The notes under the pieces are model-generated. The model searched no databases and was not told where the DNA came from. It saw nothing but the letters and a program-made list of their open reading frames with translations. From Parcubacteria group bacterium Gr01-1014_31 (GTDB taxonomy: Bacteria; Patescibacteriota; Patescibacteriia; Buchananbacterales; GWA2-38-13): a stretch of DNA of 64,000 bases. Location of the stretch: contig VMFR01000002.1 in the NCBI GenBank assembly GCA_007376135.1, positions 156,870-220,869 of the forward strand, written 5' to 3'. Below are positions 1-47,103 of this stretch, one piece after another. The position numbers and the translations under genes were made by a program. Position 1 is the first letter of the stretch. Each line of letters begins with the position of its first letter.

Positions 1-190
1 GAGGAAGGCAGGAGAATAACCCGCCGTAAGCCAACCCAGGAGGCGCGGCAGTTTATTCTTCAGCCGTAGGCAGTGTTCGCGCCATGATTTCGTTGCTTAC
101 CGCCGACGTGCTCGCGGGCTGGAGGCGGGTTTACTCTTTATCTCCGTGGCTTGAATTTTTGGCTCACTACTGCTATCGTGGAGGTGTTTT

Positions 191-1063
191 GTGACGAAGG
201 AAAATCCCGGACAACCCATCGTCGTGCTGGGCGCCGACCACAACGGCGTTGCCCTGAAAGCGGCGGTCAAGCGGCTGCTGACCGATGCTGGTTTTTCGTG
301 CGTGGATATCGGCCCGTACGACGAGGCCAAAGTGGACTACACCGATTTTGCCAGGACCGTCGGTCAGATCGTGCACAACGGCGATGCGCGGTGGGGCGTG
401 CTCATCTGCGGGACGGGCGTAGGGATGAGCATCGGCGCCAACCGTTTCAGCAACGTGCGCGCCGCGCTGGTCCACGATCTGGCAACCGCGGGCAAATCGC
501 GCGAGCACAACGACGCCAACGTCCTGTGTCTGGGCGCCTGGGTGCAGCCCGAGGAAGTGAATCTGGAGATCGCACGTCGCTGGTTTGCGGAAAAGTTCGG
601 CGAATTCCGCCACGTGCCGCGAGTGGAGAAAACGAAACAGGCCGACCGCGCCAAGGTGGTCTTTGCGCCCGGCATTTTCGATGCGGTCCACGCCGGCCAC
701 GTCAAGCTGCTGAAATTCGCCAAATCGCTGGGCGGGAAATTGGTGGTCGGCATCAACTCCGACCGCGCCACCAGTGAGTTGAAGGGTGAAGGGTATCCGG
801 TCAACTCTGAGCAGGACCGCAAGGCGGTGTTGGAATCGTTGGACGTGGTGGATGAGGTCATTGTGTTCGACGACGTCAAGATTCGGGGGGTCATCGACCA
901 GGTGCGTCCCGATATCGTGGTCAAGGGCGGCGAGTTCACCGCCGACCAAGTGCGCGAGCGCGACCATATCCCGCCGGAGATCGAGATCAAGATCTACCCG
1001 CTGGTGCCCGGCTATTCCACGCACGGATTTTTCGAAAAGATCAGCGGGCGGCCCAAGACCTAA
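191..1063 (+). CDS. Fusion protein: N-terminal RpiB/LacA-family sugar-phosphate isomerase plus C-terminal HldE-domain-II-like (cytidylyltransferase-fold) nucleotidyltransferase
   Basis: N-terminal ~150 aa carry RpiB motifs (VLGADHNG, ICGTGVGMSIGANR). C-terminal ~140 aa carry a nucleotidyltransferase HxGH motif (GIFDAVHAGHVKLL) and VGINSDRATSELKGEGYPVNSEQDR, resembling the heptose-1-P adenylyltransferase half of HldE. GTG start at 191. Confidence 0.75.
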   Translation: MTKENPGQPIVVLGADHNGVALKAAVKRLLTDAGFSCVDIGPYDEAKVDYTDFARTVGQIVHNGDARWGVLICGTGVGMSIGANRFSNVRAALVHDLATAGKSREHNDANVLCLGAWVQPEEVNLEIARRWFAEKFGEFRHVPRVEKTKQADRAKVVFAPGIFDAVHAGHVKLLKFAKSLGGKLVVGINSDRATSELKGEGYPVNSEQDRKAVLESLDVVDEVIVFDDVKIRGVIDQVRPDIVVKGGEFTADQVRERDHIPPEIEIKIYPLVPGYSTHGFFEKISGRPKT

Positions 1064-1068
1064 ACGCT

Positions 1069-2046
1069 ATGGCAAGGGTGCATTCCCACACGTTGCCGGA
1101 ATTACTTGCCCGTCGGCGCGTCCTCGTGGTTGGGGACGCGATTTTGGATGTCGCCTATCATGGCCGCGCGCTGGGTCCGTCGGTGGAAAATCCCGCGGTC
1201 ACCACCTACGCGAACGAACGCATTGCCTACTCCTACGGCGGCGCCAGCCTGGTGGCGCGCAATCTGCTGGCGCTGGGCGCGGCGGCGGACTACGTGACCG
1301 TGCTGGGCGATGATGCGAATTTGGAGAAGTGCCGCGCGTTCTCCTACCCGCGGCTGCGTTTCAACACCAAGGTGATTGAATCGGGCCGGGTGAATACCGT
1401 GAAAGAACGGTTCTGGGCCGGCAGCACGCTGGTGTTCAAATGGGATTTCCGCGATGACCGCGACATCGGCGCAGGAGCGCAGCGCAAAATGCTTTCCGCG
1501 GTACGCCAACGGCTGCGCGGCGCAGTGGCGCTGGTCATCGCCGACAACCGCCACGGCGTGCTGGCCGGCGCGGTCATTCCACAGTTGCTCGCCGCGGCCA
1601 AGCGCGCCAAGGTCCCGGTGTACGTGGATTCGCAGGTGACCGCGTCGCGGCCAAGCAACCATCAAAGCTACCGGGGCGCGGACGTCATCTGCCTCAACCT
1701 GAAAGAAGCCCAGGCGGTGTCTCCGGCGTTCCAGCCAGAGCGCGCCGAGCAGGATTTGTGGGAGATCGCCGAGAACTTGGGAGCCACCACGGTCGTCGTC
1801 AAACTCGGCGAACAGGGTTCCGTTGCTCTGGCGAACGGGGAATTCATCAGAACTCCCGCCTTCCGCGTTTCCGCCATGGATGCGGTTGGCGCCGGGGATG
1901 CGTTCATCGCGGCACTGGCAGCAGCGCACGGCACTTCTTGGGTAACAGCGCTGGCGTTCGCCAACCGCTGGGCCGCGCTGTCCACGACCGTGCGCGGGCC
2001 AAATCCCCCAACATTGGAAGCATTTCGTCAATCGCTTGCCGATTGA
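1069..2046 (+). CDS. PfkB-family carbohydrate kinase (HldE domain I-like, sugar-7-phosphate kinase)
   Basis: PfkB signature DAVGAGDAF near C-terminus and an N-terminal GD...LD..Y motif. Starts 5 bp after the upstream stop. Confidence 0.75.
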   Translation: MARVHSHTLPELLARRRVLVVGDAILDVAYHGRALGPSVENPAVTTYANERIAYSYGGASLVARNLLALGAAADYVTVLGDDANLEKCRAFSYPRLRFNTKVIESGRVNTVKERFWAGSTLVFKWDFRDDRDIGAGAQRKMLSAVRQRLRGAVALVIADNRHGVLAGAVIPQLLAAAKRAKVPVYVDSQVTASRPSNHQSYRGADVICLNLKEAQAVSPAFQPERAEQDLWEIAENLGATTVVVKLGEQGSVALANGEFIRTPAFRVSAMDAVGAGDAFIAALAAAHGTSWVTALAFANRWAALSTTVRGPNPPTLEAFRQSLAD

Positions 2047-2090
2047 TCCGGTTCCCTAATTCCGTATTCCAAATTCCTCATTCCCCGTTT

Positions 2091-2861
2091 ATGTACGGTT
2101 ACGACGCCAGTAAACTGGAACAGTTCATCACCGCGCCGCGGGAGCAGCCGGCCGATTTCGGCGTACAGCGCGACATCGTCGCCACGCCCCACTACTCGAT
2201 GCGGCAGTTTGCTCTCAAGGCCGGCGGCGTTCTGCCGCCCCGCCAGCATGAGCGGCCAGTGACCTTGTACGTGGAAACGGGCGTAGTCTCGGTGATTTCC
2301 GGCACCGGCGAGGTTTCCGTACCGGCCGGGAAGCTGATTGAAATCCCCGCAGGAAATACCTACGCTGTGGAAGCTAAGGCACCGTCGGTGGTCTATAGTT
2401 TTGCCTATCCAAATCATTCCGGCGAACGTATACTGAAAGAGCGCGGCGGGAAGTCCGCACCGCTGACGACCCAGGAACCGGCTGACCGGCGGGAAAAGTA
2501 TTGGGGCGATATCTGCACCATCGCCAGCGAGGAGGTCGCCGGCAAGCGCCTGTTCCTGAAAGCCGGCAGCCATGGTTCGATGGAGTTCCACGTCCGCAAG
2601 CACGAAAGCTACTACGTGCATTCGGGGGAACTGGCGCTGCTGCTGCGCGCCGGCCGGGCCGAGAACCGCCTCTTCCGCGTTCCTGCGGGCAAAGCCGTGG
2701 CGATGCCGCCGGGCCTGATGCACCAGCGCGGAGCGATCCTGGATACCGTGTTGCTCGAGATTTCCACCCGCGACGAGGACAGCGATTCGTTCCTGGTGGA
2801 AGATGGCGCCGTTTCGCCGATGAAAGGATTCAATGAACTTATCAAAGAACTTAGTATCTAG
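2091..2861 (+). CDS. Bicupin-domain protein (putative sugar-phosphate isomerase/epimerase)
   Basis: Two cupin-like beta-barrel segments (GVVSVISGTGEV..., FHVRKHESYYVHSGELALL). Start chosen at MYGYD (2091) inside the longer ORF 1758..2861. Confidence 0.55.
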   Translation: MYGYDASKLEQFITAPREQPADFGVQRDIVATPHYSMRQFALKAGGVLPPRQHERPVTLYVETGVVSVISGTGEVSVPAGKLIEIPAGNTYAVEAKAPSVVYSFAYPNHSGERILKERGGKSAPLTTQEPADRREKYWGDICTIASEEVAGKRLFLKAGSHGSMEFHVRKHESYYVHSGELALLLRAGRAENRLFRVPAGKAVAMPPGLMHQRGAILDTVLLEISTRDEDSDSFLVEDGAVSPMKGFNELIKELSI

Positions 2862-2884
2862 CACTTAGTATTTAGTACAGGCCT

Positions 2885-3547
2885 ATGCAAGCTTTCCTTG
2901 ATTCCGCCAATTTGGAGGAGGTGAAGATCGCCCTCAGCAAGGGCTGGCTGCGCGGCATTACCACCAACCCGACCATCATGGCCCGCGAGCCAAAGACCAA
3001 CTACGCCGGGCATATCCAAAAGATCGCCGACCTGTGCCAGGAAGCCAATCAACCCGTGTCGTTGAGCATAGAAGTGTTCGCGCGCGATGCGGCCGGCATG
3101 CTGCAGCAGGCGCGCGAGTTCGTCAAAGAGGTCCGCTACCCGAGCCTCGCCATCAAGATCCCCGTCGCGCCGGAAACCATGGGGGTCATCGCCGCCCTGG
3201 CGGGCGAGGGCGTGCGCGTCAACGTAACGTGCGGGGTGACGTCCGGCCAGGGGGCGTTGGCCGCCGCTGCGGGCGCGACGTTCTACTCCTTGTTCTTCCA
3301 CCGCATCAAGGATCTCGGCACGGACGCGGCGCAGACCGTGCGGGACACCAAAACTTTGATCGCCGGGAGCGGCACGCAGATCATTTGCGGCAGCATCCGC
3401 AACGTCGACGATATCCTGGAGTGTTCACTGGCCGGGAGCGACATCGTGACGGCTCCGCTAAAGCTGTGGGAGGAAATGGCGCATCACGCCAAGTCGGTGG
3501 AGTGGAACGAGAAGTTTTTGCAGGATTTCGCGGCCTGGATCAAGTAA
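2885..3547 (+). CDS. Transaldolase / fructose-6-phosphate aldolase family (TalC/FSA-type, ~220 aa)
   Basis: DSANLEE...GITTNPT N-terminal motif and the typical ~220-aa length of FSA/TalC. Confidence 0.8.
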   Translation: MQAFLDSANLEEVKIALSKGWLRGITTNPTIMAREPKTNYAGHIQKIADLCQEANQPVSLSIEVFARDAAGMLQQAREFVKEVRYPSLAIKIPVAPETMGVIAALAGEGVRVNVTCGVTSGQGALAAAAGATFYSLFFHRIKDLGTDAAQTVRDTKTLIAGSGTQIICGSIRNVDDILECSLAGSDIVTAPLKLWEEMAHHAKSVEWNEKFLQDFAAWIK

Positions 3548-3553
3548 CCTCCC

Positions 3554-4228
3554 ATGCTGGAAGCTATCAAAGACCGGGTCTGGCGGGCCTGCCAACGGCT
3601 GGTGGTCGTCAACCTGGTCATCCAAACCGAAGGGAACGTGTCCGAGCGCACGCCGGATGGGCGGTTTTTCGTCATCAAACCCTCGGGCGTGCCATACGCC
3701 GAGCTGCAGCCCGACCATTTCGTGGTGGTGGACCTGGAGGGCCGCGTTCGGGAAGGCAAGCTCAAGCCATCCACCGACACCCCGACGCATCTTGAGATCT
3801 ACCGCCGCCGGCCGGACATCGGCGCCATCTGCCACACCCATTCACCGTACGCGTCCGCCTGGGCGCAGATGGGCACGCCGCTCCCCTGCTTTGGGACGAC
3901 GCATGCGGACGCGTTCGGCGGCGCCGTGCCCGTCACGCGATTGCTGACGCCCGCTGAAGTGGTCGAGGGTTACGAGCGCGCCATCGGACGCGTGATTTCC
4001 GAGGTTTTGCCGCCGACCGCGCGTGCGGTGCTGGTCGCCGGCCATGGGCCCTTCGCGTTCGGCGAGAATGGGCTGGAGGCGGTGCGCTACGCCGAGATCC
4101 TGGAGAAGGTTGCGATGATGGCGACGGTCAATCCTCCCGCCCGGCCGCTGCCCGCCCACATTCTGCGCAAGCACTACGACCGCAAGCACGGCGCGGGCCG
4201 CTACTACGGACAGGAGGTTGAACGGTAA
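3554..4228 (+). CDS. Class II aldolase/adducin-family protein (L-ribulose-5-P 4-epimerase / L-fuculose-P aldolase-like)
   Basis: GNVSER, IKPSG and HTHSPYA motifs typical of the AraD/FucA fold. Confidence 0.75.
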   Translation: MLEAIKDRVWRACQRLVVVNLVIQTEGNVSERTPDGRFFVIKPSGVPYAELQPDHFVVVDLEGRVREGKLKPSTDTPTHLEIYRRRPDIGAICHTHSPYASAWAQMGTPLPCFGTTHADAFGGAVPVTRLLTPAEVVEGYERAIGRVISEVLPPTARAVLVAGHGPFAFGENGLEAVRYAEILEKVAMMATVNPPARPLPAHILRKHYDRKHGAGRYYGQEVER

Positions 4229-4271
4229 ATACATAAGGTGCCATGCGAGCGCACGGCACCCCGGTCGCCGC

Positions 4272-4961
4272 CTAACGGGCGGCTATTTTTTTTACTATCA
4301 TCATTGGTTCCCGTGGCGCGCCGGACGGTATCACCAAGTCGGCGGCGGAAAAATTTTGCCCTTCGGTCAGCACGCTGGGCAGGGCGACGACCCGCAGGCC
4401 GGCGGCATGCGCTGCCGTGACGCCGTGCTCGGTATCCTCGAACGCCAGGCACTCGGCCGCGGGAATACCCAGTTGCCGGACAGCCTCTAGGTAGAGGTCG
4501 GGCGCGGGTTTACGCTTCAGCCCGGGATAATTTTGGAACGCGACGACAAATTGGAAAAAACCTGTCAGTCCTGCCGCGGCGAGATTTTCATCCGTGTCCT
4601 GCTGGATGGAGTTGGTCGCCGCAATACGCGGCATCTTCGGATAGGCGCGGGCAAAATTCCGTGCCAGCGCGACGTTCTCCGCCAGGACCGAAATGCCGCT
4701 TGACCGCAGCTGGCGGTAGATTTCGCGCCGCCGCAGGTTGAGCGCTGCATGGTCGCCGCTCATTTGTTTGCGGGTGCAGATGTCGGCCATGTTCTCGGTG
4801 CTCCCGCGCCCAATGAAGGGCAAGTATTCTTCCAGGGCCAGCGTCGCGCCGTGCTCGGCCAGTAGTTTCTGCCAGGCGGAAAAATGCAGTTGTTCGGTGT
4901 CGACCAGCACCCCGTCGATGTCGAATACCAGCGCTTGGACTGTACCGCTTGCCTTGGTCAT
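4272..4961 (-). CDS. HAD-IA family hydrolase (beta-phosphoglucomutase-like phosphatase)
   Basis: FDIDGVLVDTE motif I, a downstream K and a DD motif. Start set at MTKASG. Confidence 0.75.
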   Translation of the reverse strand: MTKASGTVQALVFDIDGVLVDTEQLHFSAWQKLLAEHGATLALEEYLPFIGRGSTENMADICTRKQMSGDHAALNLRRREIYRQLRSSGISVLAENVALARNFARAYPKMPRIAATNSIQQDTDENLAAAGLTGFFQFVVAFQNYPGLKRKPAPDLYLEAVRQLGIPAAECLAFEDTEHGVTAAHAAGLRVVALPSVLTEGQNFSAADLVIPSGAPREPMMIVKKIAAR

Positions 4962-5128
4962 ACTCGCCCCGTTGAACAAATTTAATAGCTACTCTGGTAG
5001 CCGCCTTCTCGTTGCGATACTATGAATACTGTGTTATCGTTCCATTCTTGTTGTCCCGGCGCACGTATTTTGTACAACGGGGTTATGATGGTAGAGTACG
5101 GTACTTATTCCTTGGATGCAACCGCACT

Positions 5129-5632
5129 ATGGTAGCAGAAAAACGGCAGACCATCGACCAACTGGCGAAGGTCGTTGCCGACCTCAAACGCGCGGGCAAG
5201 ACCGTCGTGACGACCAACGGCGTATATGACGTGCTGCATGTGGGTCACGTCCGGCTACTGGAGCAGGCAAAAAATCTGGGCGACGCGCTGGTGGTGCTGC
5301 TAAACTCCGACCGCTCCACGCGCGAGCTGAAGGGCGAAAAGCGCCCCATTGTTCCCGAGGACGAACGGGCGGAAATGGTGGCCGCGCTCGGGTGTGTGGA
5401 TTACGTCGCGATTTTTGACGACCTGCGGCCGGACGCGGCGCTGGGAAAACTCGCGCCGCAGGTGCACGTGAAAGGCGGCGACTACACGCCCGCCCAGATC
5501 CAGCCGGGCGAACGCGCGACCATTGAAGGCGGCGGCGGCAAGGTCGTCGTACTCCCGTTGACCCCCGGCCGGTCGGTGAGCGACCTGGTGGAAAAGATCC
5601 TGGCCACGGCGCCCCGAAAAGTAAAAAGTTAA
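5129..5632 (+). CDS. HldE-domain-II-like nucleotidyltransferase (heptose-1-phosphate adenylyltransferase-like), second paralog
   Basis: NGVYDVLHVGHVRLL HxGH motif, LNSDRSTRELKGEKRPIVPEDER and VHVKGGDYTP. ATG at 5129 inside ORF 5012..5632. Confidence 0.75.
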   Translation: MVAEKRQTIDQLAKVVADLKRAGKTVVTTNGVYDVLHVGHVRLLEQAKNLGDALVVLLNSDRSTRELKGEKRPIVPEDERAEMVAALGCVDYVAIFDDLRPDAALGKLAPQVHVKGGDYTPAQIQPGERATIEGGGGKVVVLPLTPGRSVSDLVEKILATAPRKVKS

Positions 5633-5695
5633 AATGCAAAAGGCAAAAAGTTCAAGTCAAAAGTAATAATTTTTTGATTTTTTGACCTTTGTCCC

Positions 5696-6820
5696 TTGAA
5701 TTCTTCTCTCATGTTCCATTTGCAACGCGCGTGGCTGCTGCTGCAGACTTTGGCGGCGTCATTCCGTCACCGACCTCCCGCGGCCGCAAAAAATATCCTG
5801 GTGCTGACCACAGGCAAGCTGGGCGACCTGGTGTGCCTGACGTCCGTGTTTGGCGCGGTTGGCCGCCAGCTGCGCACCACGGTCGATGTCGTTGCCAATC
5901 GCTTCGGCCCGGAGCTGTTCACCGGCAACCCCTCCATCGGTACCGTCTGGGTGCTCAATACGACATCACCATCGGCGCTGGCGGCGCGGCAGTACAGCCA
6001 TGCCGTCATGCTCAACCCGAATCCCGAGCTGGTTGCTCTGGCCGTGCGTGCGGGTATCCCCCATCGCATCGGCATCAGCACCCCGCGGGAGAATTTTTGG
6101 ACCAGGATCTTTGAACGGTTTCTGCGGGAGCGGTACGTCTATGGGTACGACCAACAGCAGGTACCCGAGTTCAGCCAGCGGCTGTTTGCCACCTTGGGCG
6201 TCCAGCCGGAACCGGAGCGGCGCGAATTGTTCCCGTCCGACGCCGACCGGCGCAACGCAGCGTCATTCTGGCAGCAGCACGCGCTTGACGGGCAGACGGT
6301 CGTGGCCATATGCCTGGGCGCCGGTAAGGCCTATAAACTATGGCCGGTCGAACGTTTCGCGGAAGTCGCCGACCATCTGATCGAGCACTATCGCGCAAAA
6401 ATATTGCTGGTTGGGAGCGGCGGGGATAAGGAACGGTCGGCGGCAATGGCGGCAGCAGTCATTCATCGCGAAGCGGTGGTGGATGCGACCGGGCAGTTCA
6501 AGTTGCTGGAGCTCGCCGCGGTCGTGCAGCCGTGCAAGCTGTTCATTGCCGCGGATACCGGTCCACTGCACGTCGCCGACACCATGAAGGTACCGGTGGT
6601 GGATATCGCCGGGCCCGCCGACTGCGTCACGCAGCATCCTATCTACCGGTACAAGATCCTGCACCCGCAGGGGAAAGAGCAGTACGGCGAGATGGCCGTC
6701 GCCTTCCATTCCGGTTCCGAGCATGAAGAGCGCTACGCTAAAATGGCGGGTGCGGTTACCGTGCAACAGGTGACCGACGCGATTGGCCAGCTTATCGGCG
6801 ATGGAGAACGTCGTAAGTAA
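5696..6820 (+). CDS. Glycosyltransferase family 9 (ADP-heptose:acceptor heptosyltransferase-like)
   Basis: GT9 motifs: N-terminal KLGDLV and C-terminal ADTGPLHVA. Alternative start at 5711. Confidence 0.75.
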   Translation: MNSSLMFHLQRAWLLLQTLAASFRHRPPAAAKNILVLTTGKLGDLVCLTSVFGAVGRQLRTTVDVVANRFGPELFTGNPSIGTVWVLNTTSPSALAARQYSHAVMLNPNPELVALAVRAGIPHRIGISTPRENFWTRIFERFLRERYVYGYDQQQVPEFSQRLFATLGVQPEPERRELFPSDADRRNAASFWQQHALDGQTVVAICLGAGKAYKLWPVERFAEVADHLIEHYRAKILLVGSGGDKERSAAMAAAVIHREAVVDATGQFKLLELAAVVQPCKLFIAADTGPLHVADTMKVPVVDIAGPADCVTQHPIYRYKILHPQGKEQYGEMAVAFHSGSEHEERYAKMAGAVTVQQVTDAIGQLIGDGERRK

Positions 6821-6874
6821 TGCGGCGGCCGTTCGAGTACTTACTTCTTAGCACTTAGTACTTACCACACCGAA

Positions 6875-7654
6875 ATGCGCTTCGACATCATCACCATTTT
6901 TCCGAATCTCTTTGCTTCCTATCTGGAGGAAACTATCATTGCGCGCGCCATCCGCAAAAAATCGCTGCGCGTGAATCTGGTGGACCTGCGCCGTTTTGCG
7001 AAAGCTGGCGACGCCCACCGCAGCGTGGACGGCCGTCCGTACGGCGGCGGACCGGGAATGATACTCATGGTGGAACCCATCGCTAAAGCCCTTCGGGCTT
7101 TACGAATCAAGAATCAAGAATCAAGAATCAAGGGATCGGATTGGCCCACCGCCTCTCCCCTTGTGGGAGAGGCCCGCCGCGGGGTGAGGGGGCGATCGAA
7201 GGCCCGCGTTGTGATGCTCTCTCCTGATGGCAAGCCATTCACCCAGCGGGAGGCCGAACGGTTGAGCAAGTACGACCGTCTTGTTCTCCTCTGCGGACGT
7301 TACGAGGGGTTTGATGCGCGCACGGTTAAACTTGTGGATGAGAAGCTTTCCATCGGCCCGTACGTGCTCGCCGGCGGTGAATTGCCCGCGATGGTGGTGC
7401 TGGAAGCCGTGGCGCGGCATGTGCCGGGCGTGGTCGGGCACCCCGAGGCGCTGAAGGAGGAAACTTTTTCCCAGGGTATGGACTACGTCGAGTATCCGCA
7501 GTACACGCGCCCGGAAAAATTTGTTCCGGCGGGTCTTCGACTCCGAGGCTCAGACTCGAGGAGCAAGCGTGGGGCGGCATGGCGCGTGCCAAAAATTCTG
7601 CTCTCCGGCGACCACAAAAAGATTGCCGCCTGGCGGCAGGCAAGGACCAAGTAA
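6875..7654 (+). CDS. trmD: tRNA (guanine37-N1)-methyltransferase TrmD, with two in-frame low-complexity insertions
   Basis: MRFDIITIFP..., YGGGPGM and LLCGRYEGFD motifs. An insertion of roughly 20-35 aa between PIAKAL and MLSPDGKPF is encoded by the tandem repeat (gaatcaa)x4 plus a palindrome. Confidence 0.9.
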   Translation: MRFDIITIFPNLFASYLEETIIARAIRKKSLRVNLVDLRRFAKAGDAHRSVDGRPYGGGPGMILMVEPIAKALRALRIKNQESRIKGSDWPTASPLVGEARRGVRGRSKARVVMLSPDGKPFTQREAERLSKYDRLVLLCGRYEGFDARTVKLVDEKLSIGPYVLAGGELPAMVVLEAVARHVPGVVGHPEALKEETFSQGMDYVEYPQYTRPEKFVPAGLRLRGSDSRSKRGAAWRVPKILLSGDHKKIAAWRQARTK

Positions 7655-7792: not shown

Positions 7793-9196
7793 ATGAGCGA
7801 TGCACCGTGCATCGGGATCGTCGGCGCCTTCGGCGGCGACGAGGGCAAGGGCAAAGTGGTGGATGTGCTGGCGCAGAACGCCGGCTGCGTCGTGCGTTGC
7901 GAGGGCGGCGCCAACGCCGGCCATACCATTCGGCTGGAGGACCTGTTGTTCATCGGGCATCTGTTGCCGAGCGGCGCTGCGGCCGGCACGCTGTGCGCGA
8001 TCGCCCGCGGCGTGCGCGTGGACCCGATGCAGCTGCTGCAGGAAGTCGGCAGTTATACCGCGCCGGGTGCTGGCGGGAAGTGCCGAACGCTCGCGCTCCT
8101 CGTGGACGAAGGGGCGGCGTTGTCGCTGCCGTGGCACGTCAAGCTCGAAGAGTACTTCGAGCGCGTCAAGGAAAAGCGCGTGCGCGGAACTGGCAGCACA
8201 CGACGCGGCATGGGGCCCATCGCCGCCACCGCGGCGTTGCGGCTCAACCCGCGGGTCGGCCTCCTGACGCGGCCCGAGGAACTGCGACAGTGGTTGGACG
8301 ACTTCTTCGAGGCGTTCCATCCTCTGCTGGCTGAAGCCGGCAACACCGTCACGCCTGCGGCGCTCGCCGAGCTGCTGGCGGGTCATGGGGCGCAGCTTGC
8401 CCCCTACGTCGGCGACGTGCGCGCGCGTGTCGAACAGGTCTGGCGCGGCGGCGACCCCGTCGTGCTGGAAGGCGCCCAGGGTATGATCCTGGACCCGTAC
8501 TGGGGCACGTACCCCTACACCACGCAGGGCATGTGCACCTTCGCCGGCCTGCTGCAGGGCTGCGGGCTGCCGGTCTCCGCGCTGACCGACCGCATCGGCG
8601 TTTGCAAGGCGATCGCCACCCGCGTGGGCAACGGGCCTTTCCCGTCCGAGCTGGGCGACCCGGCAAAGCTCGCTGCCGAGCCCAAGGTCGTGGACGCCGA
8701 CCTGGATGCGTTCGCCCGCGAGATGCTCACCAAGATCAACGCCGGCCATGCCTCCGACCAGGAGCTGGGCTTCTACCTGCGCGTGCGCGCCGACGAGTAC
8801 GGCGCCACGACCGGCCGCCACCGCCGCACCGGGTGGCTGGATGGCGCATGGCTGGAGTACTTCGCAGCCGTCAACGATCCCACCGCGCTGGCGTTGACCA
8901 AGCTCGACTGTCTGGGCGGTCTGCGCGAGGTCAAGATCGTGGTCGCCTACGAGCTGGACGGCCGCCATCTGCCGCCGGGCACCGTGCCGGCGCTGGCGTC
9001 GGACTACGCGCGCGTGCGCCCCGTCTACCAGACGCTGCCAGGCTGGAGCGAAGACATCAGCGACGTCACCCGGTTTGACGCCCTGCCCGCCGAGGCCCGC
9101 GCCTACGTCGAACTGGTGGAGGAGATCGCCAACTGTCCGATAGGGTGGATCGGTACCGGACCCCTTCGCCGACAGCTCATCATCCGGCCGCACTGA
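7793..9196 (+). CDS. purA: Adenylosuccinate synthetase
   Basis: GDEGKGKVVD P-loop, GPxYxxKxxR-like segments and TKLD. Confidence 0.9.
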   Translation: MSDAPCIGIVGAFGGDEGKGKVVDVLAQNAGCVVRCEGGANAGHTIRLEDLLFIGHLLPSGAAAGTLCAIARGVRVDPMQLLQEVGSYTAPGAGGKCRTLALLVDEGAALSLPWHVKLEEYFERVKEKRVRGTGSTRRGMGPIAATAALRLNPRVGLLTRPEELRQWLDDFFEAFHPLLAEAGNTVTPAALAELLAGHGAQLAPYVGDVRARVEQVWRGGDPVVLEGAQGMILDPYWGTYPYTTQGMCTFAGLLQGCGLPVSALTDRIGVCKAIATRVGNGPFPSELGDPAKLAAEPKVVDADLDAFAREMLTKINAGHASDQELGFYLRVRADEYGATTGRHRRTGWLDGAWLEYFAAVNDPTALALTKLDCLGGLREVKIVVAYELDGRHLPPGTVPALASDYARVRPVYQTLPGWSEDISDVTRFDALPAEARAYVELVEEIANCPIGWIGTGPLRRQLIIRPH

Positions 9197-9330: not shown

Positions 9331-9700
9331 GGGAGCGTTTAAAATCGCTAACGTTCACAACCGGCGCCTAACTGTTTCCACAGCTCCCGACCGCGACGGA
9401 TTGCGGTGCAGGAAAAACAGTGGCATCTGATAGCGGAGACCGTGGCGTAACTGCCAAACCCTCCGCCGCCCTATCAGGTTCCTCTGTTTTTTCTTCACCC
9501 AAAATGGTGAAGGAAAACGGACGTTGACAACTGAAACGTGGTAGGAACAACCACTGTTGTCCCGCTTCGGCGGGGCAACAGCCTACAGTCAATTCCTTTT
9601 TTGTCGGCTCCCATCGGGGGCCGGCAGAGGCTGGTTTCTGAAGCTATCTTTCAGCCTGCTTCGCCACTCGGCGAAGCTATCAATAAAAGAGCTTTCACTT

Positions 9701-11190
<1,490 letters not shown>

Positions 11191-11315
11191 AAGGAGTACG
11201 GTGTTTCTTCCAACTTCACGGTGGAAGCAACAATTCGGTCGGTTTCTGTTCTTCGGAACGGAAATCAGGAATTGACTCGGTATTCCTACCACGTTTCAGT
11301 CGTCAATCTGAAAAA

Positions 11316-11345
11316 CCCCGCCAGGTGGCGGGGTTTTTGTTATAT
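11316..11345 (+). terminator. Rho-independent terminator after the 16S
   Basis: aaaaccccgccaggtggcggggtttttgtt. Confidence 0.55.
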
Positions 11346-12263
11346 GTTTTTGGCGTCTTTTAGAATGTCTTTTTGGTACCTTTCTAAGAAAGGTACCCCC
11401 AAAGTCGCGCCCCGTGTTCGGAAAGTAGAAAAAATCAGGCTCGCTCGTCGTAAAATCGCTATGCGCAAGATTTGCCGCGCCCCGGGGACGGACAGGCGCC
11501 AGACGTTTTTTGGCAGCAGCATCCAGGACGCCGCGCTGATACGATAGCCGGAAGCCTTGCGGGTCAACCCTGACGTTTCTAGTCGCCGGGCAATTTCCGC
11601 GCGGGTGTAGTACTTCAGCACGTTGGGCGGACGCCTGCCGCTGAGCGCATTGAGCGCGCGCGTGGGCCAGAACGCCGGGCAGTACCGGTTGGGGAACGAT
11701 GCGTCAAAGATGAACGCACCGCCCGGTTTCAGCACGCGGGCAATTTCGTGCAGTGTCCGCTGGACAAACTGCTTGCCCATATGGAGAAAGACCGCGGAGG
11801 ACAGGCACAGGTCAACGCTGTCGTTCGGCAGGGGCAGCGCGTCTGCCGAACCGCAGATGAGGGAATACTGGGCGCTGGGGAAGATGGCGAAGGCCGCGCG
11901 GTAGCGCAAAAAATGCCGCAGCATAGTTTCGGCGATATCCACCCCGAAGTAGCGGTCGCAGGTCAGCTTCTTTTCGCGGGAAAGGTAGAGCGGGATGCGC
12001 CCGTAGCCGCAGCCGATCTCCAGCACGGTGCCGATGTGCTGGTCGGACGGAAAGCGCTGCCACACCTCCCCTATTTTTCCCGCCAGCGTGGCAAAGTCCT
12101 CTCGGCCGTCGCCGGTTGTGGCGATAGCCGACCGCACGTGGTCGAAAGCTGCTTCCTGTTCCCACTGCTGCCGGTAGGCGGACACGGGCGCGCCGTCGCG
12201 GGGGAAGTAGATGCCGTCGCGAGTAGTCCAATCGTTGAGCAAAGCGTTGGCCATGTTGCTCAT
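11340..12263 (-). CDS. Class I SAM-dependent methyltransferase
   Basis: Motif I LEIGCGYGR and motif post-I VDIAE. Start set at MSNMANALL (cat at 12261-12263); the longer ORF to 12926 is upstream read-through. Confidence 0.7.
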   Translation of the reverse strand: MSNMANALLNDWTTRDGIYFPRDGAPVSAYRQQWEQEAAFDHVRSAIATTGDGREDFATLAGKIGEVWQRFPSDQHIGTVLEIGCGYGRIPLYLSREKKLTCDRYFGVDIAETMLRHFLRYRAAFAIFPSAQYSLICGSADALPLPNDSVDLCLSSAVFLHMGKQFVQRTLHEIARVLKPGGAFIFDASFPNRYCPAFWPTRALNALSGRRPPNVLKYYTRAEIARRLETSGLTRKASGYRISAASWMLLPKNVWRLSVPGARQILRIAILRRASLIFSTFRTRGATLGVPFLERYQKDILKDAKNI

Positions 12264-12341
12264 TGTAGCCCGAATTACGAGTGGCAGTAAGGCCGCTCTT
12301 TTAAAGGGAAAGGAATAACGGTACAGTATGGACGTTCGTCT

Positions 12342-13733
12342 ATGGTCACCTCTGCCAGCGATATTCCGAAAAATTCGGCGCTTTCTGCCGATCTGTGCAT
12401 CATCGGTTCCGGTCCGGCGGGGTTGTCGCTGGCGCTGGAGTACAGGGGCCGGGGCGAGAAGGTCTGCGTCCTGGAAGGCGGCGAGCGGGAGCCGAATGCC
12501 GACGCGCAAGCGCTGAACGATTTGGAAGTGGACGCCCAGCCGGTTTCCCTCAAATCGCGGCTGCGCGTACTGGGCGGCACGGGCAAAGCGTGGCGCGGGC
12601 TGTGGAAACCGCATGATGCAATAGATTTTTCGGCGCGGCCGTGGGTGCCCCAGAGCGGGTGGCCGTTTTCGCGGGAAACCGTGGCGCCGTACTACGCGCG
12701 CGCGGCAAAATTGTTCCATGCGCCGGCGGCGGCCGACTTTCCCGCCGGCGGCCTCCTGGATTCTCCGCGGCTGGCCACAGCTCCGCTGTTCCGGCTGCAG
12801 GACGCGGATTTGGACCTGGCGGCCAAGTACGGGCCGGAGCTGGAACAGTCGAAGAATATCACGGTGTACGTGGGGGCAAACGTCGTGCGGCTGCAAACTG
12901 ATGGCAACGGTGTGCACGCCGCGCACGTTGAAGTCAGGACTTTAGGCGGCAACGCGTTTACCGTTGCGGCAAAACAATTCGTTCTCGCTTGCGGCGGGAT
13001 TGAAAATGCGCGGCTGTTGCTCCACTCCCATGTCGGCAACGGAAACGTCGGCGCATATTACCAGGATCACCCGAAGGGCGTTTGCGGCGTACTGACGGCC
13101 AGCAAACCGGTCCGCTGGCCGGCCTACTGGGGGAAAAATTCCGGTGTGTGGTGGATGAAGGCCGGGCTGCGGCTGCCGGATTCCGTGCAGCAGCGCGAGC
13201 AGGTACTCAACAGCTTCATTACGCTGGAGCCGGAATTCGGCAAACTCGGCAAATTCGGGAAAAAGTACCTCGGACATACGCCGGCGGTCCGAATCATCCG
13301 CGTTCGCAATTATCTGGAGCAAGCGCCCGTTTCCGGCAATCGCGTGACGCTGAGCGGCAAGGTTGACCAATTTGGCAACCCGATTGCAAAGATCACCTGG
13401 TCGCTGTCGGAGTTGGATAAAAGAACAATGGTTGTTTTTCACCGCATCCTTAAAGAAGAGTTTGCCGCCCGCGGTATCGGCAAGTTCCGCAGTCCCCTGC
13501 TTGATGGCGGCAAGGATTTTCCGGTCTTCACGGACGCATCGCACCACATGGGTACAACCCGCATGGGGACCGACCCGCACACTGCCGTCGTGGATGCGGA
13601 CTGCAAACTCCACGGCGTGGACAACGTCTTTATCGCCGGCAGCTCGGTCTTCCCGACCAGCGGCTACGCCAACCCGAATGCGACGATTGTTGCGTTGGCC
13701 ATCCGGTTGGCAGACTATCTAATTAGAACGTAA
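12342..13733 (+). CDS. GMC-family FAD-dependent oxidoreductase
   Basis: N-terminal Rossmann motif DLCIIGSGPAG and C-terminal GMC signature (H...GTTRMG...VVD...HGV.N.FIAGSSVFP). Confidence 0.8.
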   Translation: MVTSASDIPKNSALSADLCIIGSGPAGLSLALEYRGRGEKVCVLEGGEREPNADAQALNDLEVDAQPVSLKSRLRVLGGTGKAWRGLWKPHDAIDFSARPWVPQSGWPFSRETVAPYYARAAKLFHAPAAADFPAGGLLDSPRLATAPLFRLQDADLDLAAKYGPELEQSKNITVYVGANVVRLQTDGNGVHAAHVEVRTLGGNAFTVAAKQFVLACGGIENARLLLHSHVGNGNVGAYYQDHPKGVCGVLTASKPVRWPAYWGKNSGVWWMKAGLRLPDSVQQREQVLNSFITLEPEFGKLGKFGKKYLGHTPAVRIIRVRNYLEQAPVSGNRVTLSGKVDQFGNPIAKITWSLSELDKRTMVVFHRILKEEFAARGIGKFRSPLLDGGKDFPVFTDASHHMGTTRMGTDPHTAVVDADCKLHGVDNVFIAGSSVFPTSGYANPNATIVALAIRLADYLIRT

Positions 13734-13868
13734 TAATTTTATTTTATGTGGGATTTTATTCGGAGCATGAAATATTATATTTTAGGTCTCTGATGGTTCG
13801 ATTGAAATTGAAGATTTTGGAAGAATTGATAGTAACTCTGTTCAGATGGTTGAGAAAATAAAGGATTT

Positions 13869-14456
13869 ATGATTTCCTATTCGATTCCAAAATCTCCTAG
13901 TGATAATTTATTCAATAAAAAGGATGGGAAGAAGACTCCCATTGTATCAATATTATCTTTATTGGTTTCTTTTGGAACCCTAGTTTTTGTTTTTTATAAC
14001 TATTTTTTTCTTGAGCGTGCACAAATAGGTTTAAAAGATTATAAAGTAATTAGAATGGATGATGAGGGGAAAACCAGGTACCAGATAACTTATAAATTAT
14101 CAAATTATGGGAAAGTATCGGCCAGCGATGTGTCATTTAAAATATACGCAATGACTATTAATGATGATAGCTTTAAAAAAATGATATGGTCAGATAGTAT
14201 AGTCAGCATCGTTGTCCCCGGGGCAGATTTCCCTTTTGGTGTAGATACCTTGGACTTCAGCCCAGATAACCTTGGGAAGAGCATGGCGCTGATTTTTGAT
14301 TTTGAATTCAATGATACGATGTTTTCCAGAAGAAAATCGCAGTTGTGGTTTAGGTATCAGGCAGGAACTGTGGGGGACAACGTGTTATTTTATTTACTTG
14401 AGAGTGAACGAGATAAAATTATGGAAAAATATAAAGAATTAAAGACCACACAGTAG
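13869..14456 (+). CDS. Hypothetical membrane-anchored protein encoded in a low-GC island
   Basis: AT-rich codon usage in an otherwise 65% GC window, with an N-terminal TM helix. No recognizable domain. Confidence 0.5.
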   Translation: MISYSIPKSPSDNLFNKKDGKKTPIVSILSLLVSFGTLVFVFYNYFFLERAQIGLKDYKVIRMDDEGKTRYQITYKLSNYGKVSASDVSFKIYAMTINDDSFKKMIWSDSIVSIVVPGADFPFGVDTLDFSPDNLGKSMALIFDFEFNDTMFSRRKSQLWFRYQAGTVGDNVLFYLLESERDKIMEKYKELKTTQ

Positions 14457-14547
14457 TAAATCATTGAAATAGTTCCAGCCGTTTGACTCCCCCAACTGTC
14501 CAGTAGTACGTTGCAACCGTGAGGGGTTAATACCTAATTTTCGTCTT

Positions 14548-15261
14548 ATGCGTCCCACAACAAAACGGCGAGCCGTGGTTATCTCGCTAGTAGCAGGGCT
14601 ATCAGTTGGTACTTTCGCCCTCGCGTCGCACCTCTCCGTTGAAGCGGAGAAGTTTTTTCAAAAAACCTGTACCCGATTAGATATAAAGGGTATTAACGCC
14701 TTTGTTTGCGATTTGCGCGAGAGACTCGACGCGCTCACCGTCCGCGTCGACAACATTCCCGCCGGCCCGCAAGGCGAACCGGGTCCCGCCGGATCACCAG
14801 GGCCGCAGGGACCCGCGGGTGCTGGACTTGTTGTGAAAGATGTCAACGACGTCGTTATTGGTCCTCTCGTCCAAATTGAAAATAATCAACTTCTCATTTG
14901 GAAACCGAGTATCCAAAGAGTGATTGAGCTTAACCCGGTTCTTGAAGAAACAACGGTCTTACATTCATTTGGTGTTGTACTTAGTTACGAGTCTAATGAT
15001 TGTACGGGAAACCCGGTGTGGGGCGAGGGGGCGATTCTCCGCGCCGACTATGATGTAGCGAATCCTCCAAGCCAGGAAGGGTGGACCAAAATGCATGCTA
15101 CCGATATCGTTGTGCAGGTTATTGTTAATAGTGAATGGAATAATGTGAGTCGAACCTGCACCGCAGTCCCTGGAAAAATTCTTGGAACAGCTGGGTTGAT
15201 GGTTGAAGGACCATTCGGTGGGGTGCCATATACCGGTCCACTTAAAATTGTTGAGGAATAA
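14548..15261 (+). CDS. Collagen-like triple-helix repeat protein (signal-anchored, Gly-X-Y run, C-terminal globular domain)
   Basis: GPQGEPGPAGSPGPQGPAGAG G-X-Y repeats and an N-terminal hydrophobic segment. Low GC. Confidence 0.6.
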   Translation: MRPTTKRRAVVISLVAGLSVGTFALASHLSVEAEKFFQKTCTRLDIKGINAFVCDLRERLDALTVRVDNIPAGPQGEPGPAGSPGPQGPAGAGLVVKDVNDVVIGPLVQIENNQLLIWKPSIQRVIELNPVLEETTVLHSFGVVLSYESNDCTGNPVWGEGAILRADYDVANPPSQEGWTKMHATDIVVQVIVNSEWNNVSRTCTAVPGKILGTAGLMVEGPFGGVPYTGPLKIVEE

Positions 15262-15278
15262 GGTAAAATAGTACATTA

Positions 15279-15312
15279 TCAACCCCCGCCCTCGCCGGCG
15301 GGGGGTTTTGTT
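15279..15312 (+). terminator. Rho-independent terminator
   Basis: aacccccgccctcgccggcgggggttttgtttt. Confidence 0.55.
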
Positions 15313-15356
15313 TTATTGCGAGTGCTAAATTCTTTTTTGTACGGTAAAATCAGGCC

Positions 15357-46062: not shown

Positions 46063-47103
46063 CTAGTCCAGCAGTTCGGGGTTGAGCATGTGAAATTGCG
46101 CCGTCTCTTTCGTGATCTCTTCATTGCGGAACAGGTTGATGAGGTCCTGGTCCATGGTGATCATCCCTTCCTCCGCGCTGGTCTGCAGCACCGTCTTGAT
46201 CTGCGCGATCTTGTTCTCGCGCACGAGGTTGGCGACCGCCGGGGTGTTGATCAGGATCTCGCGGGTGGCGACGCGGCCGCCGGTTTTCCTGGGGATGAGA
46301 CGCTGGGAAATGATGGCGCGCAGCGTGATGGACAGCTGCAGGCGGATCTGGGGCTGCTGGTGCGGGGGGAAGATGTCGATAATGCGGTCCATCGTCTGGG
46401 CGGCATTGTGGGTGTGGAGTGTCGCCAGTACCAGGTGGCCGGTCTCCGCCAGGGTGATGGTGGTGGCGATCGTCTCCAGGTCGCGCATTTCGCCGACCAT
46501 GATGACGTTGGGGTCCTGGCGCAGGACGTGGATGAGTGCGTTGTTAAAGCTGAGCATGTCGGTGTTCAGCTGGCGCTGCTTGATGATGGATTTGATGGGT
46601 TCGAAAACGAACTCAATGGGGTCTTCCAGCGTGATGATGTGCGAGGAGCGTTCGTTGTTGATGTGGTTGATCATCGCCGCCAAGGTCGTCGACTTGCCGC
46701 AGCCGGTGGGGCCGGTCACCAGCAGCAGCCCTTGTTGCAGGTTGAGCAGGTCGTAAACGATCTGCGGCACGTTGATGTCCTTGAGGGTCGGGATCTCCTT
46801 GCTGATGACGCGCGCGACCATCCCCAGGTTATCCTTTTCCCAGTGGCAGTTGACACGGAAGCGTCCGATACTCTTCAGGTCGTAGGAGAGGTCCAACTCG
46901 CGCTCCGTTTCCAGCAGGCCGTACTGTTTGTCGGTCAACATCGGTTTGATGAGCGCGCGGATGTCATTGCCCGTCAGCTTCGCCTTGCCGGGGATCTGGT
47001 GCAATACCCCGTCAATGCGGATGATCGGCGGCATCGCGGTCACCAGATGAAGGTCGGAGGCCTTGCGCTCGACGGCGATCTTGAATAACTCATCGATGCT
47101 CAT
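46063..47103 (-). CDS. pilT: Type IV pilus retraction ATPase PilT
   Basis: Walker A GPTGCGKSTT, Asp box and His box (VGEMRD, ATLHT) of PilT/PilU ATPases. Confidence 0.9.
   Translation of the reverse strand: MSIDELFKIAVERKASDLHLVTAMPPIIRIDGVLHQIPGKAKLTGNDIRALIKPMLTDKQYGLLETERELDLSYDLKSIGRFRVNCHWEKDNLGMVARVISKEIPTLKDINVPQIVYDLLNLQQGLLLVTGPTGCGKSTTLAAMINHINNERSSHIITLEDPIEFVFEPIKSIIKQRQLNTDMLSFNNALIHVLRQDPNVIMVGEMRDLETIATTITLAETGHLVLATLHTHNAAQTMDRIIDIFPPHQQPQIRLQLSITLRAIISQRLIPRKTGGRVATREILINTPAVANLVRENKIAQIKTVLQTSAEEGMITMDQDLINLFRNEEITKETAQFHMLNPELLD

Follow-up and report, generated by a model that had tools for sequence, protein, structure and literature searches.

Between positions 191 and 6820 of a 64,000-nucleotide stretch of DNA from Parcubacteria group bacterium Gr01-1014_31 (this whole stretch is called the window below) lies a cluster of eight genes, most likely for the synthesis and use of an activated sugar (Table 1). 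A first-pass annotation made from the bare sequence had claimed eight gene families here, and the listing of open reading frames (ORFs) together with profile searches recovers all of them. Two start positions had to be mended (2091 for the bicupin, 5129 for the second nucleotidyltransferase), and the HAD gene, formerly described as co-directional, is in fact convergent with its neighbours. The first five genes are separated by gaps of 5–44 bases, and six of the encoded proteins are identical to the GenBank entries TSC76540-44 and TSC76546. The hairpins and T-runs between the convergent genes look like a bidirectional terminator; the regional total of such sites does not exceed the shuffled expectation, and it is solely their position that is suggestive. 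A scan of positions 1–7000 for sigma-70 promoters found none, a negative that is uninformative for this phylum. The isomerase GmhA and the epimerase HldD of the ADP-heptose pathway had been noted as absent, and this stands: Escherichia coli GmhA, GmhB and HldD used as tblastn queries against the whole 64-kb window (E ≤ 10) returned noise only. Pfam scans of the other window ORFs revealed housekeeping genes only.

Table 1. Features of the probable sugar cassette, in window coordinates
Feature	Positions	Strand	Basis or remark
RpiB/LacAB–nucleotidyltransferase fusion	191-1063	+	single 290-aa ORF, profile search
PfkB kinase, HldE domain I/HldA-like	1069-2046	+	best NCBIfam model rfaE_dom_I
Bicupin	2091-2861	+	Cupin_2 and Cupin_1
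Transaldolase-type TAL/FSA enzyme, 220 aa	2885-3547	+	TAL_FSA
AraD-like class II aldolase-fold enzyme	3554-4228	+	Aldolase_II
GC-rich hairpins and T-runs, both strands	4235-4284	.	between convergent genes
HAD phosphatase, beta-phosphoglucomutase family	4272-4979	-	HAD_2, TIGR02009
Stand-alone HldC/HldE-II-like nucleotidyltransferase	5129-5632	+	rfaE_dom_II
GT9 glycosyltransferase	5696-6820	+	Glyco_transf_9, PF01075

The cluster is a conserved cassette and not a chance neighbourhood. With the bicupin as query 80 metagenome loci, which carry no taxonomy, were fetched and scored by tblastn with the window proteins and with GmhA, GmhB, HldD, HldE, WaaC and WaaF of E. coli MG1655. Co-occurrence was counted in the 28 loci whose flanks on either side of the bicupin measure 3.5 kb or more. 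A PfkB kinase, some HAD phosphatase and an HldE-II-like nucleotidyltransferase are present in all of them (100%, 28/28), a transaldolase-family gene in 27/28 (96%), the RpiB domain likewise in 96% and a small phosphatase termed here mini-HAD in 93%. GT9 within 6 kb of the bicupin and a second nucleotidyltransferase were each detected in 15 of the 28 loci (54%), the AraD-like gene in six (21%, mostly Patescibacteria-like), a GmhB-like gene in 18%, SDR genes nearby in three and GmhA in a single one (4%). The order RpiB–nucleotidyltransferase, PfkB, bicupin, (HAD), transaldolase is nearly invariant across the loci and recurs in dozens of unrelated contigs. At five loci with homologues of the RpiB–nucleotidyltransferase fusion this gene is adjoined by PfkB, bicupin, transaldolase, AraD-like, small-protein and GT9 genes in varying combinations. 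Among the carriers are Doudna-, Kaiser- and Staskawiczbacteria as well as other Parcubacteria and, outside Patescibacteria, metagenome-assembled genomes of Acidobacteriota (Acidobacteriaceae), Lacunisphaera (Verrucomicrobiota), Gemmatimonadota and Myxococcales (Myxococcota); one carrier is labelled “archaeon”. Conservation of the neighbourhood among relatives, which the first-pass annotation had put forward as a check, extends over 28 well-flanked loci and several phyla. In the searched literature no description of this cassette was found.

Gene fusions and local contexts add to this picture. We rely on those fusions that are confirmed by called genes or database proteins, namely RpiB–nucleotidyltransferase, nucleotidyltransferase–RpiB–nucleotidyltransferase, bicupin–HAD and nucleotidyltransferase–PfkB. 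A variant without RpiB (locus L171, positions 10001-14037) comprises a bicupin–HAD fusion, a transaldolase, a ROK-family protein and a nucleotidyltransferase–PfkB fusion of 461 aa whose domain order is reversed relative to HldE; B12-binding radical SAM genes, an inositol-monophosphatase-family gene and GT9 are found nearby. Two further loci (L001 and L006), with genes for GT4, GT2, a Wzx-type flippase, DegT and SDR proteins, are envelope-glycan clusters. In some loci canonical heptose genes adjoin the cassette. Directly upstream of a complete cassette L141 and L143 (5705-7697) carry gmhB together with a full-length hldE, whose product shares 45% identity with E. coli HldE over 458 residues, and L139 (6517-7729) carries gmhA (43% identical to the E. 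coli protein) and gmhB in the same place. Locus L160 also has a canonical gene upstream (4786-5304), and the gmhB copies beside the cassette are about 35% identical to that of E. coli. The gene order of these four loci matches that of the Acidobacteriaceae locus L172.

In the fusion protein, which is identical to TSC76540.1, the N-terminal part matches the LacAB_rpiB profile (aa 11-147, E 1e-44; the RpiB/LacAB domain spans aa 11-152). The C-terminal domain (aa ~153-290) matches CTP_transf_like at aa 159-260, and its best NCBIfam model is rfaE_dom_II with 125.9 bits against a cut-off of 181.5 (E 1e-36, compared with E 4e-12 for TagD). The corresponding matches in the PDB are RpiB 6fxs (E 1e-29) and HldC 5x9q (E 2e-22), and both domains occur together in all 120 top homologues. 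The RpiB domain exceeds the cut-off of the subfamily model PRK05571 (154.4 bits versus 135) and stays under that of the equivalog model TIGR01120 (134.2 versus 138.65). Residues D16, H17, C73, T75, H106 and N107 are invariant in 55/55 aligned cassette copies, as are R140, H141 and R144, which form an Arg-His-x-x-Arg clamp, in 43/43. Typical of the cassette form are N18, K102 and W117, each found in 54–55 of 55 loci, and N124 (52/55). The control set consisted of 79 plain RpiB genes among the matches listed from a contig scan with a generic RpiB motif (80 loci). Position 117 is Trp in 54/55 cassette copies versus Arg in 65 of the 79 stand-alone enzymes, and the proline of the DYP motif, present in 75/79 controls, is replaced by Val, Ile, Cys or Thr in the cassette, mostly as DY(V/I). 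The residue at the place of W117 is Arg113 in the RpiB of Trypanosoma cruzi and Mycobacterium tuberculosis, one of three phosphate-stabilising arginines (PMC4882579). LacAB, which works on a hexose-6-phosphate, is devoid of Arg113, for which a basic residue of the β2/α2 loop substitutes, and possesses a pocket that is 3 Å longer (PMC3755991). About half of the cassette copies, and none of the controls, have Lys at the equivalent position of this loop. Because the phosphate site has been remodelled, as in LacAB, the cassette domain is probably not an ordinary ribose-5-phosphate isomerase.

The kinase, both nucleotidyltransferases and the glycosyltransferase had been assigned to HldE domain I, HldE domain II and the heptosyltransferases, and profiles, sequence identity and PDB matches all place them nearest to these enzymes. 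The kinase obtains 148 bits with rfaE_dom_I (cut-off 345) versus 62 bits with the ribokinase model and is 31% identical to residues 4-293 of E. coli HldE; its top PDB match is HldA 4e84 (E 4e-12), with ribokinase close behind (E 3.5e-10). The stand-alone nucleotidyltransferase, identical to TSC76546.1, reaches 162.5 bits with rfaE_dom_II (cut-off 181.5) and is 41% identical to residues 324-471 of E. coli HldE, the range for the two nucleotidyltransferases being 41-42%. Both carry an HxGH motif and a C-terminal (F/L)xxGxS(T/V)(T/S/H) motif, present as HAGH and LVPGYSTH in the fused domain and as HVGH and LTPGRSVS in the stand-alone protein, the latter with Arg at position 5 of the STTR5 motif. 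In heptose nucleotidyltransferases the C-terminal motif is (F/L)xxGRSTT, and Arg at position 5 is reported to be the hallmark of relaxed choice of the nucleoside triphosphate (PMC11573728). The FAD_syn model gives only 19-21 bits with the two proteins, under its cut-off, versus 126-162 bits for rfaE_dom_II. Ribokinase or ribose-1-phosphate kinase as identity of the kinase, and FAD synthetase or TagD as identity of the nucleotidyltransferases, were ruled out as their models score far under those of rfaE. The pairing of a ribokinase with an FAD synthetase, which the first-pass annotation had named as the contrary outcome of such profile searches, does not apply. A triple fusion nucleotidyltransferase–RpiB–nucleotidyltransferase of 469 aa (P0009, at 10001-11410 of locus L005), an architecture seen also in P0003 and P0005, suggests that the two nucleotidyltransferases work together. 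The GT9 protein matches PF01075 with 85.5 bits (cut-off 22) and stays under the equivalog cut-offs of heptosyltransferases I, II and III; it finds 3tov and WaaF 1psw in the PDB and is 22.5% identical to E. coli WaaF.

The bicupin is the most peculiar member of the cassette. Its AlphaFold2 model (pLDDT 95.2) shows two β-barrels, and both a sequence search of the PDB and a Foldseek search with the model retrieved generic bicupins only (oxalate decarboxylase, quercetinase, seed globulins). Metal ligands are missing from the N-terminal barrel. The C-terminal cupin has the invariant metal motif E167, H169, E174 and H213 and the further invariant residues K172, R188, R191 and R215 (numbering from 2085), within the invariant pattern G-x5-E-x-H-x4-E-x6-G ... 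G-x5-P-x-G-x2-H. Weak matches under threshold were obtained with MannoseP_isomer (PF01050) in 42/54 bicupin relatives (best E 9e-7) and with Lyx_isomer (PF07385) in 40/54 (best E 8e-6); monocupin relatives weakly match GMP_PMI and WbuC. From motif and profiles we infer that the C-terminal cupin is a putative metal-dependent aldose–ketose isomerase. GmhA catalyses the C7 equivalent of what phosphomannose isomerase does, and the bicupin would therefore be a natural substitute for GmhA and is the likeliest one. Locus L171, with bicupin and without RpiB, supports it as the main-line isomerase. The first-pass annotation had RpiB, bicupin and AraD-like enzyme jointly replace GmhA and HldD; the substitution of GmhA can be retained, with the bicupin rather than RpiB alone as preferred candidate on account of its metal motif, its weak isomerase profile matches, its frequent fusion to the phosphatase and L171. 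Fusions of bicupin and mini-HAD are frequent (L001 and many database homologues, 353-391 aa), and an exhaustive profile search yielded about 60 full-length bicupin clusters at 50% identity, so this is a real family and not a huge one. Two homologues, P0244 (483 aa) and P0247 (467 aa), possess an extra C-terminal domain of ~220 aa that may represent a fusion to the transaldolase or to another cassette member. In GenBank the bicupin (TSC76542.1) is labelled “nucleotidyltransferase”, a name backed by no profile and probably propagated in error from neighbour genes or from bifunctional GMP-PMI enzymes.

A Schiff-base Lys accompanied by Glu and Phe is typical of transaldolases, and by Gln and Tyr of FSA. 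In the TAL-family protein E63, K91 and F137 occupy the positions of Glu, Lys and Phe in the transaldolases from Thermotoga maritima, Bacillus subtilis and Thermoplasma acidophilum. In the PDB it comes closest to transaldolases (1vpx, 3r8r and 3s0c, E 1e-34 to 1e-28), FSA following at ~1e-17, and its NCBIfam score is 141 bits, under the cut-off of 246. A “transaldolase/FSA” gene is embedded in the cluster as proposed, and it is of the transaldolase and not of the FSA type. In 61 cassette transaldolases the catalytic and phosphate-binding residues are all kept, and D6, E63, K91, N113, T115, S135, F137, R140, S170 and R172 are conserved; the cassette form is further marked by P36, K37, H43, Y85, G169 and D176 and by a common inserted loop with the invariant Lys37 and His43. 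A change from SPFVGR to SLFFHR in the window enzyme was considered as a signature and dropped, the His being not conserved across cassette copies. It had been suggested that this enzyme may supply sedoheptulose-7-phosphate. As a core member found in 96% of the loci, also outside Patescibacteria, it reads as a step of the pathway and not as an incidental supplier.

The AraD-like protein is aligned over its full length with E. coli AraD 1jdi (E 1e-50) and obtains 246.7 bits with the AraD subfamily model, just under the cut-off of 257. It retains the equivalents of N28, K42, D76, H95, H97, D120, H171 and Y229, among which we take Asp120 and Tyr229 to be the acid–base pair, others to be Zn ligands, and Asn28 and Lys42 together with a Ser to bind phosphate. 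Because the phosphate-binding residues of AraD are fully conserved, the protein probably still acts on a pentulose-5-phosphate. The gene is accessory to the cassette. Its proposed role as replacement of HldD is not obvious for a protein that is found in 21% of the loci and keeps all AraD residues, and we disfavour both this role and that of a sedoheptulose-7-phosphate 4-epimerase, the phosphate residues being all kept and the gene missing from 79% of the loci.

The HAD phosphatase of the window matches HAD_2 (E 2e-23) and TIGR02009 (116 bits). In most loci the bicupin is adjoined by the mini-HAD, a protein of 116-123 aa with the motifs FDLDGxLC and MGKPxxDxxxDD and with TIGR01689 (EcbF/BcbF capsule-biosynthesis phosphatase), not GmhB, as best curated match. 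No mini-HAD is present in the window, which shares with its 84%-identical relative L007 a HAD of the beta-phosphoglucomutase (beta-PGM) type instead. Large HADs homologous to that of the window occupy the mini-HAD position also in L088, L094 and L095. This looks like a non-orthologous displacement, and the window HAD is predicted to be the terminal-phosphate phosphatase in place of the mini-HAD.

Because the invariant core supplies the four activities of nucleoside diphosphate (NDP)-heptose synthesis, along with a transaldolase and a second isomerase, and the cassette is found in envelope-glycan contexts, we read the region as an HldE-style activation pathway for a higher-carbon (C7 or C8) sugar that would be transferred by GT9, with a probability of about 0.7. 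Protein families, residue conservation, fusions and co-occurrence are observed; the substrates, the order of steps and the identity of the sugar we infer. The transaldolase would move a dihydroxyacetone unit from fructose-6-phosphate or sedoheptulose-7-phosphate to an aldose phosphate and thereby form a ketose phosphate, which would be sedoheptulose-7-phosphate with erythrose-4-phosphate as acceptor and octulose-8-phosphate with ribose-5-phosphate. The C-terminal cupin of the bicupin would then convert the ketose phosphate to an aldose phosphate, the role of GmhA or LmbN, and the HldE-I-like PfkB kinase would phosphorylate O1. The terminal phosphate would be removed by a HAD enzyme, here the beta-PGM-type protein of the minus strand and elsewhere the mini-HAD, and the HldE-II-like nucleotidyltransferase would form the NDP-sugar, which GT9 would finally hand to an acceptor in the cell envelope. 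The RpiB domain may either supply the aldose-phosphate acceptor or act as a second, 2R-specific isomerase on a longer ketose phosphate; the AraD-like epimerase would be an optional feeder or tailoring step.

Several observations weigh against this pathway. A linear route needs one aldose–ketose isomerase and the cassette has two, often together with two nucleotidyltransferases, a surplus we cannot confidently explain. Every NCBIfam equivalog cut-off is missed, so that the activities are predicted ones. The link between the bicupin and isomerases consists of sub-threshold profile matches and a motif, with Foldseek pointing to generic bicupins. In the vicinity of roughly half of the loci GT9 is lacking, and the second nucleotidyltransferase likewise. 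Finally, in Patescibacteria RpiB and transaldolase could double as the sole pentose-phosphate copies.

The product is probably not plain ADP-D-glycero-D-manno-heptose, because canonical hldE/gmhB or gmhA/gmhB adjoin the cassette in some loci and because the transaldolase is near-universal, also in phyla with large genomes. We know of no heptose cluster that carries or needs a transaldolase. The two isomerases may differ at C2, with RpiB/LacAB leading to the 2R and phosphomannose or lyxose isomerases to the 2S configuration; by this analogy opposite stereochemistry may give a heptose epimer, or two products for the two nucleotidyltransferases. A heptose other than, or made in addition to, the plain one and an octose would be equally good candidates for the product, each of them tentative; some further sugar appears rather doubtful, and the plain heptose unlikely. 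Hence from the first-pass proposal of an alternative route to an activated heptose or other 7-carbon or 6-deoxy sugar, the logic of the pathway can be retained and the neighbourhood is conserved across loci, and what has to be given up is the expectation that C7 be favoured: an octose is as likely as a heptose, and plain ADP-heptose is improbable.

The octose deserves attention as a possible, still tentative product. The RpiB domain would yield ribose-5-phosphate, to which the transaldolase would add a C3 unit giving D-glycero-D-altro-octulose-8-phosphate, and bicupin, kinase, HAD and nucleotidyltransferase would lead on to an NDP-octose for transfer by GT9. Each core enzyme would be used once, the near-universal presence of both transaldolase and Rpi-family domain would be accounted for, and a co-resident set of canonical heptose genes would fit. 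The lack of RpiB in L171 would be expected if central metabolism supplied ribose-5-phosphate, and lincosamide biosynthesis is a proven precedent. The cassette enzymes are however not orthologous to LmbN, LmbP, LmbK and LmbO, judged by their fold classes, and no octose is known from envelope glycans of the carrier phyla. Loss of the Arg113 equivalent and of the DYP proline would also be unexpected in a plain ribose-5-phosphate isomerase and rather suggests that the domain has adapted to another substrate, possibly a longer one, as in LacAB (PMC3755991). Less probable is that plain ADP-heptose is made by non-orthologous displacement, with RpiB or the bicupin isomerising sedoheptulose-7-phosphate and with transaldolase, RpiB and AraD-like protein only feeding the route. 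Although kinase, nucleotidyltransferases and GT9 are best matched by heptose enzymes, the canonical transaldolase product is sedoheptulose-7-phosphate, and GmhA is missing from the window and from 27/28 loci, the cassette would be redundant wherever canonical hldE and gmhB or gmhA and gmhB adjoin it, one isomerase and often one nucleotidyltransferase would be idle, HldD is lacking, and a transaldolase in 96% of the loci, including those outside Patescibacteria, would be hard to understand. That KEGG-style surveys score “ADP-heptose biosynthesis” in Paceibacteria (PMC9166423) is in line with such a plain heptose.

Activation of a terminal phosphate is a still more remote idea: the fused nucleotidyltransferase would act on a non-anomeric phosphate, for example converting ribose-5-phosphate or ribulose-5-phosphate to an NDP-5-pentose for a teichoic-acid-like polymer. 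This would resemble the synthesis of CDP-ribitol, CDP-glycerol and CDP-6-fructose, and the remaining genes would form a second pathway. The CTP_transf_like fold does include TagD, CCT and ECT, which act on simple phosphomonoesters, gene fusions often join consecutive steps, and the mini-HAD is closest to a family of capsule-biosynthesis phosphatases; a cytidylyltransferase acting on fructose-6-phosphate is documented too, with a different fold (PMC10918830). Yet the fused domain clearly prefers rfaE_dom_II to TagD (E 1e-36 versus 4e-12), the obligatory kinase, bicupin and transaldolase would be left unexplained, and heptose pathways usually fuse non-consecutive steps, as in HldE and in tridomain enzymes (PMC11573728). 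Least credible of all is the absence of any common pathway, i.e. housekeeping rpiB, tal and araD-like genes that happen to lie beside unrelated sugar genes in a compact genome. The rest of the window is indeed of housekeeping character (trmD, purA, 16S rRNA, gyrA), and Patescibacteria depend on the non-oxidative pentose phosphate pathway (PMC9166423), but the gene order is kept across phyla with large genomes, fusions join members of both supposed gene sets, and RpiB and transaldolase carry invariant substitutions specific to the cassette.

Patescibacteria are episymbionts with tiny genomes and an almost unknown surface chemistry, and the cassette, in which several conserved genes are probably devoted to an unusual activated sugar, offers a direct handle on this surface. 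A GmhA-independent, transaldolase-coupled way to NDP-activated higher sugars would extend both the RpiB/LacAB family and the cupins by a new activity. If an octose is the true product, the cassette would parallel, in primary metabolism and with non-homologous enzymes, the octose pathway of lincomycin and would provide GT9 with its first non-heptose higher-sugar donor, for envelope glycans of Patescibacteria, Acidobacteriota, Verrucomicrobiota and others. NDP-heptoses are agonists of ALPK1, so a new NDP-heptose-like metabolite of many environmental and host-associated bacteria would be of immunological interest. The cassette proteins are small and predicted to be soluble, which makes testing in vitro feasible. 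In GenBank they are named “ribose 5-phosphate isomerase B”, “ribokinase”, “nucleotidyltransferase”, “transaldolase” and “L-ribulose 5-phosphate 4-epimerase”; the names of the fusion, the kinase and the bicupin (the “nucleotidyltransferase”) are misleading, and pathway surveys therefore score the genes as pentose phosphate pathway or as ADP-heptose biosynthesis.

Downstream of the cassette the window continues with trmD, purA and the 16S rRNA gene. TrmD (6875-7654, 259 aa) and PurA (7793-9196, 467 aa) match their profiles in two stretches each and are about 30-40 aa longer than the models, which indicates internal insertions. The 16S rRNA gene is complete (9695-11188); neither a 23S nor a 5S gene is present in the 53 kb that remain, and the nearest tRNAs (Ile-GAT, Phe) are 13 kb off; this is an unlinked arrangement of rRNA genes, as is common in Patescibacteria. 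In an ORF of 528 aa on the minus strand (11340-12926) a methyltransferase profile match is limited to residues ~260-455; its Arg-rich N-terminal half abutting the 16S gene is probably not translated, the true start being an internal Met. GC content drops to 0.485 at 14001-16000, compared with ~0.62 elsewhere, between an unannotated ORF at 12942-13613 (minus strand) and a GT-C gene of the PMT_2 family (15357-17126); the dip could reflect foreign DNA or a non-coding stretch. A polytopic membrane protein of 668 aa (26950-28956) has no Pfam match and is located in a stretch with very strong excess of T over A (AT skew -0.32); perhaps it represents a glycosyltransferase of the GT-C type, possibly relevant to the fate of the sugar. 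T2SSE-family ATPases at 46063-47103 and 58890-60620 (PilT-like and PilB-like) indicate type IV pilus genes, which are common in Patescibacteria.

Among known systems the two isomerase candidates can be compared with their own families. The RpiB/LacAB family comprises ribose-5-phosphate isomerase B, allose-6-phosphate isomerase, the LacAB galactose-6-phosphate isomerase and erythrulose-4-phosphate isomerase. The cassette domain has the same fold and keeps the full catalytic set of Asp, His, Cys, Thr, His and Asn as well as the Arg-His-x-x-Arg clamp; it differs by its fusion to a nucleotidyltransferase, by an invariant Trp in place of the third phosphate Arg, by DY(V/I) and by the new invariant residues Lys102, Asn18 and Asn124. 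With the cupin isomerases, i.e. the type II phosphomannose isomerase domain of GMP-PMI, D-lyxose isomerase and archaeal cupin phosphoglucose isomerase, the bicupin shares cupin motifs 1 and 2 with four metal ligands, weak profile matches throughout the family and a context of sugar-nucleotide genes. In contrast with them, it has a degenerate N-terminal barrel, Glu and not His or Gln as first ligand, and frequently a fused HAD, and it falls under the threshold of every curated family model.

The ADP-heptose pathway (GmhA, HldE or HldA plus HldC, GmhB and HldD, followed by WaaC, WaaF or WaaQ) follows the same logic of isomerase, anomeric kinase, terminal phosphatase and nucleotidyltransferase. 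Its kinase and nucleotidyltransferases are homologous to those of the cassette (PfkB and cytidylyltransferase-like folds, 31-42% identity to E. coli HldE), its transferase belongs to the same CAZy family, and non-consecutive steps are fused in both, as in HldE. The cassette, however, has a bicupin and an RpiB-family domain instead of the SIS-fold GmhA, an EcbF/BcbF-type mini-HAD or a beta-PGM-type HAD instead of the HAD-IIIA of GmhB type, and no HldD; its core includes a transaldolase, it often possesses two nucleotidyltransferases, and in some genomes it coexists with the canonical genes.

To our knowledge no characterised NDP-sugar route other than the octose route of lincosamide biosynthesis embeds a dedicated small transaldolase that is followed by isomerase, kinase, phosphatase and nucleotidyltransferase. 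LmbR combines ribose-5-phosphate with a C3 unit from fructose-6-phosphate or sedoheptulose-7-phosphate to octulose-8-phosphate, and LmbN, LmbP, LmbK and LmbO then lead to GDP-octose (PMC5854111, PMC4351081). Both pathways have a dedicated small transaldolase of the same TAL family, which the cassette carries in 27/28 loci. Lmb enzymes belong to the secondary metabolism of Streptomyces, whereas the cassette is found among envelope-glycan genes of Patescibacteria, Acidobacteriota and other phyla. The folds of the Lmb proteins we take to be those of a SIS isomerase, a GHMP kinase, a GmhB-like phosphatase and an NTP_transferase, not homologous to cupin or RpiB, PfkB and CTP_transf_like. The likeness is one of logic and not of membership, as far as these fold classes show. 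The cassette works like the ADP-heptose and the lincosamide-octose pathways and is a member of neither.

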